This document shows positions 1,641 to 2,413 of a DNA stretch of 4,448 bases, piece by piece (the stretch's first letter is position 1; each line of letters begins with the position of its first letter). The translations under genes were made by a program, and so were the position numbers. This DNA comes from a virus (taxonomy: Duplodnaviria; Heunggongvirae; Uroviricota; Caudoviricetes). The notes under the pieces were generated by a model that searched no databases, was not told the DNA's origin, and worked only from the letters and a program-made list of their open reading frames with translations. The stretch lies in IMG/VR virus record IMGVR_UViG_2713896899_000010. One strand, written 5' to 3'.

Positions 1641-2413
1641 GCATGAATCTTATGGCTAAGGCCATGAATATAAAGGTTGGCAACCCACTGAGAAAACTGG
1701 TTCTGATTAAACTTGCCGATAACGCCAATGATAATGGCGAATGCTGGCCTTCATATCAACATGTCGCTGACCAGTGTGAGGTGAGCAGATCTACAGTAAA
1801 AAGTCACATTAGGGCGCTGGAAGAGATGGGGCTTTTGAAAAGGGAATTCAGAAGAAAAGGAGAGCTTAACCAGTCAAACGTTTTTTATCTGACGCTGGAT
1901 AATGCACAACAAATCCAACCAGAATCAGGTGGGGCAGGAGCTGACCGGGGTGGGGCAGGAGCTGACCTAGGGGGTGGGGCAGGAGCTGACCCCAGAACCT
2001 ATCACTCTTTTGAACCAGTCAAAGAACCTAAAAACATTATGTTCGAACGTGTCCGAACGAAGTGTGAAAAATCACCTGACCTTCACGAAGAAACCGACAA
2101 GGCATTCGAGGAAATATTCTGGTGTGCAGGAATGCGGAAAGCCGGGAAGAAAAACGCAGCTTCGGCATTCAGAACACAGTTCAGGGAATGGCGTAAAACT
2201 ACCAGGGGTACGGCAAGCGAGTTTGCCACGATGCTGGCAGAAGACATCGCATGCAGGAATGGTAAGCAGTTCGGATTCGACAGGTTGTTACCATCGAGCT
2301 ACCTGAACGGTCAACGCTGGAACGACGAGAAGCCAGAAACTATTCAACCACAATCCAAACCATCATCCGCAATCACCGTATCGAAAACTGGCTACGTGTT
2401 TTTCGACAGGTGA
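1637..2413 (+). CDS. Phage replication initiator, 258 aa: N-terminal winged-helix HTH domain, Gly/Ala-rich linker, C-terminal domain of unknown fold
   Basis: RBS GGAG at 1625-1628. The N-terminus LRKLVLIKLADNANDNGECWPSYQHVADQCEVSRSTVKSHIRALEEMGLLKRE is the HTH typical of prophage and plasmid initiators. The gene occupies the lambda O position and contains iterons. Confidence 0.8.
   Translation: MSMNLMAKAMNIKVGNPLRKLVLIKLADNANDNGECWPSYQHVADQCEVSRSTVKSHIRALEEMGLLKREFRRKGELNQSNVFYLTLDNAQQIQPESGGAGADRGGAGADLGGGAGADPRTYHSFEPVKEPKNIMFERVRTKCEKSPDLHEETDKAFEEIFWCAGMRKAGKKNAASAFRTQFREWRKTTRGTASEFATMLAEDIACRNGKQFGFDRLLPSSYLNGQRWNDEKPETIQPQSKPSSAITVSKTGYVFFDR
1929..1991. repeat. Three direct 18-bp iterons GTGGGGCAGGAGCTGACC (1929-1946, 1950-1967, 1974-1991); probable origin of replication
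   Basis: Three perfect copies seen directly, with 21- and 24-bp centre spacing, inside the initiator gene and followed by a moderately AT-rich stretch (1992-2045). This is analogous to ori-lambda iterons inside O. Confidence 0.75.

Follow-up and report, generated by a model that had tools for sequence, protein, structure and literature searches.

Inside the replication-initiator gene of a prophage, three perfect direct repeats are read in frame as part of the protein. Do they merely encode a linker, or do they form the origin at which that protein acts? The window examined here is the whole stretch of 4,448 nucleotides of IMG/VR virus record IMGVR_UViG_2713896899_000010. The original prediction, made from its letters, favoured an origin by analogy with ori-lambda, which lies within the O gene. 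The question is addressed below by comparing the window with its relatives and with known replicons.

The replication module and its relatives

The window is a lambda-immunity prophage with the "Eru5" or "O2P2" replication module of Stx2 phages such as phi24B and Min27, in which an HTH_36 winged-helix initiator precedes a Toprim/DnaB-type primase-helicase (Table 1). The module is 97% identical to the 'O' and 'P' genes of phi24B, Min27, and Stx2a_F403, and the initiator gene is 97.3% identical over 777 nt to those of Stx2a_F403 (AP012529, the Eru5 reference) and phi24B. Genes and gene order are those of the Eru5 phages. The window differs from them in pairing the module with a lambda-like cI/cro immunity region and in its repeat allele (GAC rather than GCC); unlike that of phi24B, its primase-helicase is devoid of the intein reported for P.

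The Eru5 replication unit of Stx phages (Fagerlund et al. 2022, PMC8951638) and the O2/P2 system of phi24B and Min27 (Smith et al. 2012, PMC3430580) have been described by classification of their proteins only. Term searches of both papers found neither "repeat" nor "iteron", nor "origin" in its replication sense. Literature searches retrieved no publication on the origin of this module, its mapping or initiator binding. Sequence strings match only unrelated primers in published text, the combination of HTH_36 with phage iterons yields only unrelated plasmid papers, and the Wegrzyn-lab paper on O and iterons deals with lambda, P27, and 933W only.

Many phages match the initiator gene only from query position 393 (window 2029), which locates a mosaic junction to an ES18-type C-terminal module at 2028/2029. 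Phages ES18, epsilon34, Oslo, Sf101, and mEp043 share the C-terminal half from 2029 and carry, directly upstream, iterons of their own and Phage_rep_O N-termini. GenBank records a rep_origin in ES18 and an origin binding site in epsilon34, these lambda-type origins being annotated by sequence similarity. The analogy with ori-lambda in O is hence strengthened by relatives that share the C-terminal domain and have lambda-type iterons at the same place.

Table 1. Features of the predicted origin and its replication genes (window coordinates).
Feature	Position	Strand	Basis or remark
Initiator N-terminal winged-helix DNA-binding domain (aa 1-88)	1637..1900	+	HTH_36, PHROG, AF2 model
Iteron 1	1929..1946	+	Exact repeat; dyad core GGGCAG-gag-CTGACC at 1932-1946
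Iteron 2	1950..1967	+	Dyad core at 1953-1967; 21 bp after iteron 1
Iteron 3	1974..1991	+	Dyad core at 1977-1991; 24 bp after iteron 2; contiguous with the invariant core
Invariant origin core (predicted) CCAGAACCTATCACTCTTTTGAACCAGTCAAAGAACC	1992..2028	+	Encodes PRTYHSFEPVKEP; zero third-position variation in 10/11 conserved codons
Short A/T-rich run TAAAAACATTATGTTCG	2029..2045	+	With the core, the least stable part of the gene
Initiator C-terminal domain	2030..2413	+	94-98% nt identity to ES18 gp59, epsilon34 gp50, and Sf101 and mEp043 'O'; PHROG 33384 at aa 94-258
Primase-helicase, 626 aa (Toprim_2 + AAA_25/DnaB_C)	2521..4401	+	Pfam; PHROG 239 'DNA primase/helicase'; homologue of ES18 gp61 and phi24B 'P'

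The initiator and its partner

The assignment of the gene to an HTH initiator holds. Pfam HTH_36 (PF13730) matches aa 17-67 with 52.2 bits (cut-off 25), and the protein belongs with PHROGs 4617 and 270, both annotated 'replication initiation protein' (E values of 4e-76 and 5e-68). It has no match to Phage_rep_O/TIGR01610, a family to which ES18 gp59 scores 131 bits in the same search. Its Pfam hits at E <= 0.01 include only generic winged-helix families and no plasmid Rep family (Rep_3 and relatives). Among solved structures no informative relative was found, the best being generic MarR/GntR winged helices (E 0.2-0.7).

The AF2 model is poor overall (mean pLDDT 48, shallow alignment) because the alignment held near-identical homologues only; it was used only for the topology of the N-terminal domain and for the low-confidence linker. 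The N-terminal domain is modelled with pLDDT values of 73-85 as three helices (17-28, 40-47, and 51-63) and two strands (67-70 and 82-85), with the recognition helix at about aa 51-63 and the wing at about aa 67-85. Residues that distinguish the specificity classes (see below) fall in this helix and wing. The DNA-binding N-terminal domain had been proposed to span about aa 1-95; the domain stands, with its end brought back to near aa 88. The C-terminal domain is presumed to be the contact for the primase-helicase, itself the presumed replicative enzyme recruited to the origin.

The repeat array

Three exact copies of GTGGGGCAGGAGCTGACC occur on the + strand, against a chance expectation of 0.01; three matches were found in 0/200 shuffles, and no fourth match exists at three mismatches or fewer. 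TRF reports a single array at 1928-1991 with 2.9 copies, and iterons 2 and 3 match over 21 nt (GGGGTGGGGCAGGAGCTGACC). Exact matching, shuffling, and TRF confirm the three perfect 18-bp repeats, and their start-to-start distances are, as first described, 21 and 24 bp. The unit itself had been defined as an 18-bp direct repeat, which is correct but is refined here to dyad-symmetric 15-17-mers. The window unit, GGGCAG-gag-CTGACC, is a slightly imperfect dyad (5/6 arm positions symmetric), and the phi24B allele, CTGCCC, is symmetric at 6/6.

The array is in frame within the 258-aa ORF 1637-2413, where it occupies codons 98-119, after the winged helix (aa 1-88) and before the C-terminal domain, and encodes the peptide GGAGADR / GGAGADL / GGGAGADP. 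The segment is predicted as disordered in the low-confidence model, in keeping with the Gly/Ala linker between the two domains that had been read from the sequence. Nowhere in the gene is the duplex more stable than in the repeats (nearest-neighbour stability, z about -2.6), whose GC fraction of 0.70 compares with 0.38-0.42 in the stretch downstream.

Other signals were sought as well. An Rfam search of the whole window detects no RNA family at E <= 1, and a promoter and terminator scan finds nothing at the repeats or the core. The sole hit in their vicinity, a weak terminator-like hairpin on the minus strand at 2041-2058, is of a kind expected at chance frequency. By eye, no convincing DnaA box, IHF site, or Chi is present in 1929-2045. 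A G-quadruplex was considered and set aside, as its G-runs would need loops of 12-13 nt and its potential is weak.

Selection on the DNA of the repeats

About 230 related loci were compared. Within any one genome the copies and their spacers are the same, and between loci the number of copies varies from 1 to 9, so that the array behaves like a VNTR, driven by slippage or recombination. The original prediction had suggested a search for such variation among related prophages; it proves to be high. A single site is found in 5/50 distinct linkers and in the deposited Stx2a phage Stx2_16002; such alleles would be unusual for an iteron origin unless these elements are replication-defective or one dyad and the core suffice.

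Such figures might suggest that the repeats are only a Gly/Ala linker at the protein level, i.e., a coding VNTR produced by slippage and without DNA function. The perfect identity within a genome, the 1-9 copies among near-identical phages, the G/A-rich composition, and the predicted disorder are all compatible with this explanation. It is nevertheless strongly disfavoured, and very improbable, in view of how the motif varies. In loci L040-L043, L049, L053, and L070, GGGGCAGGAGCTGCCC encodes both GAGAAP and VGQELP inside one ORF, the DNA motif being kept when the other frame yields a different peptide. Unrelated peptides (GAGAAP, TPPMPPDG, PSEKSAP, and VGPEST) stand at the same position according to class, all of them encoded by dyad repeats. 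Information content peaks in both arms (up to 2 bits) and is lower in the central triplet and the flanks, a pattern that does not follow codon structure.

Furthermore, the units of the family are dyads of 15-17 bp whose half-sites change symmetrically. In a covariation test on 48 distinct terminal sites drawn from 225 loci, arm positions were complementary in 212/288 cases, compared with 130 +/- 9.7 (maximum 158) with shuffled partners, and the arm pair 1-15 was complementary in 48/48 sites (G.C in 29, T.A in 19). The motif also changes along with the recognition helix: over 204 loci, half-site type tracks helix type almost one-to-one, e.g., RSTVK with GGGCAG in class A and ISKRSVMNH with GTGCAG..TTCAC in another class. 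Class A loci contain their own motif in 54/55 cases and class B loci in 20/22, while the motif of the other class is found in none. More distant HTH_36 initiators, from mEp554, SfII, Aeromonas 4_4512, and Vibrio D195, likewise possess in-gene dyad repeats right after the domain.

The motif is almost entirely restricted to the linker: in class A loci, 153 linker sites compare with 23 weak hits, mostly with two mismatches, in 342 kb outside the linker. These apparent outside sites were rejected as minus-strand images of palindromes or as two-mismatch chance matches, the sole exception being L024, in which the array is split by an insertion.

The comparison of these loci shows, at the level of their sequences, a selection that acts on the DNA and not on the Gly/Ala peptide. 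A repeat that was a mere low-complexity feature of the protein had been named as the outcome that would weaken the origin interpretation; a motif kept in two frames and covarying with the DNA-binding domain is the opposite of it. Copy number and even reading frame can change because the peptide encoded by the array is a tolerant linker. By the same comparison, the sites appear as dyads under selection that covary with the DNA-binding domain and occupy the position of lambda-type iterons.

Dyads under selection could also be the targets of another factor (a protein of the host, a recombinase active at a hotspot of module exchange, or an insertion sequence), the link to the initiator being incidental. 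Mosaic junctions do coincide with or adjoin the array and core (BLAST pieces begin at query positions 292, 337, and 393), and in one relative an apparent IS110-type transposase gene (assigned by eye) is inserted in the array. A host factor, however, would not need sites that change with the recognition helix of a phage protein, the repeat contains no Chi sequence on direct reading, and the block and dyads occur, in the 135/152 loci not cut by contig ends, only with this N-terminal domain family. We regard this explanation as extremely improbable, and the initiator as the likely ligand of the dyads.

An invariant core downstream of the array

The repeats had been described as followed by a moderately AT-rich stretch. 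The description is right as to composition, which is only moderate (about 60% A+T in the region adjoining the repeats, versus roughly 80% in lambda), but what follows the repeats is mainly a nucleotide-invariant core of 37 bp. This core has a G+C content of about 46% (counted directly) and carries GAACCAGTCA repeats, namely GAACC(AGTCA) direct repeats at 1995, 2012, and 2024. Among 43 diverged homologues, 10/11 conserved core codons display zero third-position variation, whereas the N-terminal domain averages 1.22 bits. The register between iteron 3 and the core is fixed in all relatives. Stability changes abruptly from the iterons to 2000-2039 (z from -2.6 to +2.1), and the list of the eight non-overlapping 40-bp windows of lowest stability in the 4.4-kb sequence includes this 40-mer.

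A 26-nt core pattern containing three degenerate positions is present in no fewer than 120 viral contigs, and GTDB genomes from several gammaproteobacterial orders contribute a further 72 stretches. Genomes with the block include those of Pseudomonas, Xenorhabdus, Shewanella, and a Vibrio phage, among others. In every case with upstream sequence available, the core lies downstream of this N-terminal domain. Block and dyads accompany this domain family in 135/152 loci, the other 17 being cut by contig ends. Complete freezing of synonymous sites over 37 bp, in hosts that differ widely in GC content and codon usage, is an unusual feature in phage DNA and points to a conserved mechanistic step.

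Initiator binding to the repeats might instead be regulatory, either by autoregulation through a block to transcription of the initiator and helicase genes or by copy control through titration or handcuffing, with the origin elsewhere, e.g., in the AT-rich 2414-2520 spacer or outside the window. Indeed, the initiator gene that holds the sites is transcribed and the primase-helicase gene lies downstream of them, a tuning element could tolerate a wide variation in copy number, and the window has regions more AT-rich than the repeat-adjacent segment (e.g., 2467-2506, z +2.16). Yet in every case the array joins a nucleotide-invariant core in one fixed register, a feature for which a simple roadblock would have no need, and the array occupies the position at which lambda-type iterons are annotated as origin in phages with the same C-terminal module. 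As for the spacer, it holds a conserved small ORF (phrog_21848, homologue of ES18 gp60) that also occurs in phages whose iterons are different and does not accompany the N-terminal domain. A purely regulatory role is thus judged unlikely, although regulatory and origin functions are not mutually exclusive.

A predicted lytic origin

From these sequence comparisons, the repeats are probably dyads to which the initiator binds, as a dimer, within its own gene, and together with 1992-2045 they would constitute the lytic origin. Weighing against this are the modest A+T content beside the repeats, the VNTR-like behaviour of the array with its single-site alleles, and the slightly imperfect dyad of the window allele. 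Upon derepression, the HTH_36 initiator would be made from the pR transcript. Its winged-helix N-terminal domain would bind the array and recognise the GGGCAG/CTG(A/C)CC half-sites through its recognition helix and wing, and the resulting nucleoprotein complex may destabilise the neighbouring low-stability core. The C-terminal domain would then bring in the downstream Toprim/DnaB-type primase-helicase. We infer each of these steps (initiator binding, unwinding at the core, and helicase recruitment), as well as origin activity itself.

The predicted origin shares several features with those of the lambda type. As in ori-lambda, ES18 gp59, and epsilon34 gp50, it resides in the ORF of its own initiator, with the DNA-binding domain on its N-terminal side and the recruitment domain on its C-terminal side. 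It comprises several dyad sites of about 18 bp, spaced by about 21-24 bp and followed by a less stable, though only moderately AT-rich, segment. The iterons covary with the N-terminal domain as a single specificity module, and the C-terminal domain is exchangeable, ES18 and epsilon34 having the same C-terminal domain and primase-helicase partner. In contrast to lambda, the N-terminal domain is of the HTH_36 (PF13730) family and not Phage_rep_O/TIGR01610, and the iterons are GC-rich, unrelated in sequence, and present as identical copies in hypervariable number (1-9), versus four diverged copies in lambda. A 37-bp invariant core with GAACCAGTCA repeats replaces the region of about 40 bp and about 80% A+T of lambda, and the partner is a T7 gp4-like primase-helicase in place of P and host DnaB.

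Iteron plasmids (RepE of F, pi of R6K, and TrfA of RK2) also combine a winged-helix initiator with direct repeats that adjoin a repeat-bearing unwinding element. For these plasmids, Rep has been described as contacting one strand of that element in a sequence-specific manner (PMC4081077). Unlike in these plasmids, the sites of the window are dyads within an ORF, no inverted-repeat operator is seen at the promoter, and the element is a prophage replicon.

A two-part organisation of the origin is proposed tentatively, as a reading that is plausible but slightly less than even in our estimate, taken as a whole. The iterons would be its variable half and the core of roughly 37 bp, CCAGAACCAGTCACTCTTnTGAACCAGTCAnnGAACC, its constant half, at which melting or loading would take place in all members. 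The first 45 residues, nearly invariant in this initiator superfamily, would read the core, perhaps as single-stranded DNA. The recognition helix with its iterons, on the one hand, and the C-terminal helicase-recruitment domain, on the other, would be freely swappable cassettes flanking a core frozen in prophages of Enterobacterales, Pseudomonadales, Alteromonadales, Vibrionales, and others. If true, the family would offer naturally occurring initiator/iteron pairs that are mutually orthogonal and whose recognition code can be read.

Significance

The surprise is moderate because the architecture is textbook lambda biology: an in-gene origin of known design is predicted, and the 37-bp invariant block is what is new here. 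The comparison also yields a helix-to-half-site correspondence for a large family of winged-helix initiators. A common class of Shiga-toxin phages (Eru5, including phi24B, Min27, and Stx2a_F403) uses this module for replication, and in those phages toxin output depends on the amplification of the phage genome. Placing the predicted origin at 1929-2045 would enable the construction of mini-replicons and replicon typing by iteron class, and would allow one to ask whether the number of copies, from 1 to 9, tunes replication and toxin yield.

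Genetic Context of the Initiator Gene

The window is a lambdoid prophage immunity and replication region. Within 54-1068, the products of cI and cro and the operators OR1-OR3 are similar to their lambda counterparts, and this close lambda-variant immunity region is fused to an Eru5 replication module, which is not of lambda type. No exact copy of the window was found among complete E. coli genomes, the best match reaching 97%. The cII homologue begins with ATG TAA (ATG GAA in phi24B), and with this nonsense codon at position 2 it is probably inactivated or restarts at ATG 1280.

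The initiator gene shares 97% identity with the 'O' of Stx2 phages phi24B, Min27, and Stx2a_F403/F451, and its product belongs to the Eru5/O2P2 module. The phi24B/Min27-type system was named 'O2/P2' (Smith et al. 2012, PMC3430580), and 'Eru5' is a replication unit with Stx2a_F403 as its reference phage (Fagerlund et al. 2022, PMC8951638). Term searches of both texts returned neither 'repeat' nor 'iteron', nor 'origin' in the replication sense. The 'tail protein' label of phrog_1913 is implausible for the 47-aa ORF, given its position; small ORFs precede the O genes at the equivalent position in mEp043, Sf101, ES18, and SI5. The AT-rich segment of the 35-aa ORF accompanies the C-terminal/helicase module rather than the iterons. 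A 20-nt inverted repeat flanking the initiator start codon could be an RNA structure influencing translation, or a chance occurrence.

Features of the window
Feature	Position	Strand	Match or remark
Lambda-like cI	54-767	minus
Lambda-type OR operators	immunity region
Cro	868-1068
CII homologue	frame from 1175; rest 1181-1474 intact		ATG TAA at 1175-1180; Pfam Phage_CII, E 4e-33
47-aa ORF	1497-1640		directly upstream of initiator gene, slight overlap; phrog_1913
Inverted repeat	1552-1571 / 1682-1701		90% complementary, arms 110 nt apart
Initiator gene (258 aa)	1637-2413	plus	Pfam HTH_36, 52 bits; PHROG 'replication initiation protein' families, E 1e-68 to 1e-76
Repeat copies	starts 1929, 1950, 1974	plus	GTGGGGCAGGAGCTGACC
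Array as called	1926/1928-1991		repeat finder and TRF
Invariant core	1992-2028		CCAGAACCTATCACTCTTTTGAACCAGTCAAAGAACC
Mosaic junction	2028/2029
10-bp tandem	2040-2059		TGTTCGAACG TGTCCGAACG; palindrome GTTCGAAC
35-aa ORF	2417-2524		between initiator and primase-helicase; phrog_21848, ES18 gp60 position
AAATCAA tandem	2420-2434
Primase-helicase (626 aa)	downstream of 35-aa ORF		Toprim_2 and AAA_25/DnaB_C

The Repeat Array

Three exact direct copies of an 18-bp repeat, spaced by 21 and 24 bp, had been noted inside the initiator gene, and exact matching, shuffles, the repeat finder, and TRF all confirm them. Their triple occurrence has a chance expectation of 0.01 (0/200 shuffles gave three matches), identity of copies 2 and 3 extends over 21 nt, and the window holds no additional copy at up to three mismatches. 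The translation agrees with the proposed in-frame Gly/Ala coding within an HTH-initiator gene, the array reading GGAGADR-GGAGADL-GGGAGADP. Nearest-neighbour energies rank the array as the gene's most stable segment (z -2.6), and its G+C of ~0.70 compares with 0.38-0.42 in the next 60-80 bp; the 40-mer 2000-2039 (z +2.1) is one of eight non-overlapping 40-bp windows listed as the least stable in the sequence. The moderately AT-rich stretch noted after the repeats agrees with this composition, with the amendment that it consists mainly of the invariant core. No RNA family, promoter, or terminator explaining the repeat region was found. Just downstream of the predicted origin region, the 10-bp tandem gives a weak minus-strand terminator-like hairpin in the scan, at a frequency as by chance.

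Selection on DNA Rather than Peptide

Scanning IMG/VR with residues 1-95 returned more than 586 relatives, and 80 loci were fetched. All of these display one plan: a conserved wHTH, one to six repeats, the peptide PRTSHSFEPVxEP, and one of many unrelated C-terminal domains. In related loci L040, L041, L042, L043, L049, L053, and L070, GGGGCAGGAGCTG(C/A)CC lies in two reading frames of one ORF, with GAGAAP as the product of one and VGQELP/T as that of the other; in L070, three copies in one frame precede two in the second. Conservation in the 153 sites, drawn from 50 distinct linkers, peaks in the arms GGGGCAG and CTG-CC (up to 2 bits), and the central triplet and the bases between sites show less of it or are free to vary; this pattern is independent of codon positions. 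Sites are spaced by 21, 22, or 24 bp in the family, and the motif is nearly restricted to the linker (153 sites vs 23 weak hits, mostly with two mismatches, in 342 kb of flanks). These comparisons indicate that selection acts on the DNA of the array, not on the encoded peptide. A repeat that was only protein-level low complexity would have spoken against the original prediction; the DNA motif is kept in two frames. A pure protein linker or VNTR is very unlikely, being contradicted by this frame independence and by two covariations, of arm with arm and of site with helix.

Dyads and the Recognition Helix

Each repeat unit forms a dyad of 15-17 bp. The phi24B allele (GGGGCAG-gag-CTGCCCC) is perfect, and that of the window is symmetric at 5/6 arm positions. 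Other branches carry, in the same place, TGCCA-N5-TGGCA, GTGCAG-N3-CTGCAC, GTGTAA-N3-TTACAC, GGTCAG-N3-CTGACC, GTGAC-N5-GTCAC, or TGTAGGC-N5-GCCTACA. The site abutting the conserved core, taken from 225 loci, gave 48 distinct sequences, in which the arms are complementary at 212/288 positions vs 130 +/- 9.7 (maximum 158) with shuffled partners, and at the outermost pair in all 48 (G.C 29, T.A 19). Such symmetry-preserving covariation is the pattern that a dimeric DNA-binding protein would produce.

Across 204 loci, half-site type and the residues at the turn and beginning of the recognition helix match nearly one-to-one. Class A, the RSTVK helix with GGGCAG-type sites, has its own motif in 54/55 cases and class B in 20/22, neither ever with the other's. 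The AF2 model of the initiator, built on a shallow alignment, has a mean pLDDT of 48 and is of poor overall quality; it shows a confident winged helix at residues 10-70 (H17-28, H40-47, H51-63, E67-70, E82-85) and very low confidence at residues 90-172, covering the repeats. Its topology places the class-specific residues in the predicted recognition helix and wing. Dyads serving as host-factor sites or as a recombination hotspot would leave the covariation with a phage protein unexplained, and this reading deserves next to no weight.

Helix sequence and half-site type
Helix	Half-site
xxRSTVKxH	GGGC(A/G)
xDRSTVR(K/R)H	TAGGC
CSK(S/T)AVRxH	TGCC(A/G)
ISKRSVMNH	GTGCA..TTCAC
xSRRSVIxH	GTGAA..TGCAC
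MSR(K/T)TAIxH	GT(G/A)TA..TACAC

Positional Equivalence to Lambda-Type Origins

Many phages, including ES18, epsilon34, g341c, SEN22, Oslo, Sf101, and mEp043, match the initiator gene only from query position 393 (window 2029). They have the C-terminal domain and downstream primase-helicase in common with the window. Their N-terminus is lambda-O-type (ES18 gp59: TIGR01610, 131 bits), whereas the window's initiator falls outside that family and belongs to HTH_36. The mosaic junction is sharp and falls just where the invariant block ends: from 2029, identity to the ES18, epsilon34, Sf101, and mEp043 'O' genes is 94-98%, and their N-terminal halves are unrelated to the window's. The lambda-O-type phages have their own repeats immediately upstream of the junction, namely four lambda-like ATCCCTCAAAA-GAGGGA units in ES18, epsilon34, and Oslo, and TGTCAC/GTGACA units in Sf101 and mEp043. 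GenBank annotates those of ES18 as 'rep_origin, similar to lambda ori' and those of epsilon34 as 'putative origin of replication and site of gene 50 protein binding'. Since these iterons precede the shared C-terminal domain, the N-terminal domain and repeats of the window fill exactly the slot of the lambda-type pair, before the same recruitment domain. The predicted in-gene origin would thus work like ori-lambda within O, a likeness already proposed and now strengthened by the slot shared with iterons annotated as origins in ES18 and epsilon34. A purely regulatory role of the dyads is improbable, leaving unexplained both this equivalence and their fixed fusion to the invariant core.

The distant HTH_36 'O' proteins of mEp554, SfII, and Aeromonas phage 4_4512 likewise have dyad repeats within the gene, immediately following the wHTH (GTGTC-N5-GACAC at 1779-1867 of locus L288, GTCA-N5-TGAC at 1738-1799 of L289, and GCAGA-N-TCTGC at about 1790-1910 of L287).

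Copy-Number Variation

Related prophages, in which a search for copy-number variation had been proposed, do vary, from one to nine copies. In near-identical Stx and other phages, copies number one in Stx2_16002, two in Stx2_EH2086 and SI5, three in the window and phi24B, at least six in phiKp_30, and seven in Stx2_EH2085; the best 120 database clusters have 2-9 (mode 6-7), a ranking that may favour longer arrays. This variability points to the encoded peptide being a tolerant linker. Copies within one genome agree in allele (GAC or GCC) among the close relatives compared first, a uniformity suggestive of homogenisation through slippage or recombination; the alleles are mixed in some other arrays (e.g., loci L022/L029, L039, and P0008). 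Several metagenomic viral contigs (L013, L015, L023, L030, and L038) end inside or just before the array. This suggests that it breaks short-read assemblies, so copy numbers from drafts may be unreliable. In the IMG/VR relative L024 (3001-4800), the initiator gene is broken after two repeats and a perfect dyad recurs ~1.45 kb downstream; the insert's 398-aa ORF, by eye resembling an IS110-family transposase, points to insertion into the array. Single-site alleles (5/50 distinct linkers) are a caveat against an iteron origin. Small in-frame deletions between the lambda iterons yield ori-defective phages, and by this analogy single-site alleles may mark replication-defective prophages.

The Invariant Core and a Proposed Mechanism

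The least expected part of the finding is the 37-bp core following the last repeat, for which the comparison drew on 43 homologues diverging by more than 3% of nucleotides in the N-terminal domain. Third-position entropy averages 1.22 bits over the conserved codons of that domain, where every one of the 48 non-Met/Trp codons varies; in the core, 10/11 conserved codons have zero third-position variation. Variable core positions, read by eye from the alignment, are G/T at 4, AG/TA at 9-10, T/C at ~14-16, N at 19, and NN at 31-32. Every variant alters the amino acid (e.g., F/S/Y/L/I at one site) and none is synonymous, so that variation follows nucleotide positions, not codon degeneracy. The GAACCAGTCA direct repeat occurs in the core as two full copies at a distance of 17 bp, with a third GAACC another 12 bp on; some relatives have extra 12-bp units. 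The last dyad always abuts it in constant register, a 15-mer then CCAGAACC.

A 26-nt core pattern occurs in at least 120 IMG/VR contigs and, with three degenerate positions, in 72 stretches of GTDB species genomes. Among these genomes are many Pseudomonas species, Xenorhabdus, Photorhabdus, Providencia, Proteus, Pantoea, Erwinia, Shewanella, Photobacterium, Microbulbifer, Amphritea, and a Cardiobacteriaceae MAG; Vibrio phage D195 also has the core. This spread spans several gammaproteobacterial orders. In 135/135 loci with upstream sequence, the core lies in an ORF with a window-type N-terminal domain (the other 17 end at a contig edge), and at least eight unrelated C-terminal domain clusters follow it. 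It is absent from the lambda-O-type relatives; mEp554, which is more distant, has a degenerate but recognisable form, and SfII and the Aeromonas phage retain at most short GAACC-type fragments. The core therefore travels with the initiator family, not with host or helicase type, which argues that the initiator's conserved part recognises it or that it serves in that protein's particular melting mechanism.

No publication on the repeats, the dyad code, or the core was found in a literature thinly covering subscription journals, and a mention in a genome paper is possible. We infer a mechanism in which initiator dimers would bind the dyads through recognition helix and wing, and the DNA would open at the invariant core and the short A/T run beside the array, the least stable part of the gene. 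The C-terminal domain, common with ES18 gp59, would then bring in the gp61-like primase-helicase for origin firing.
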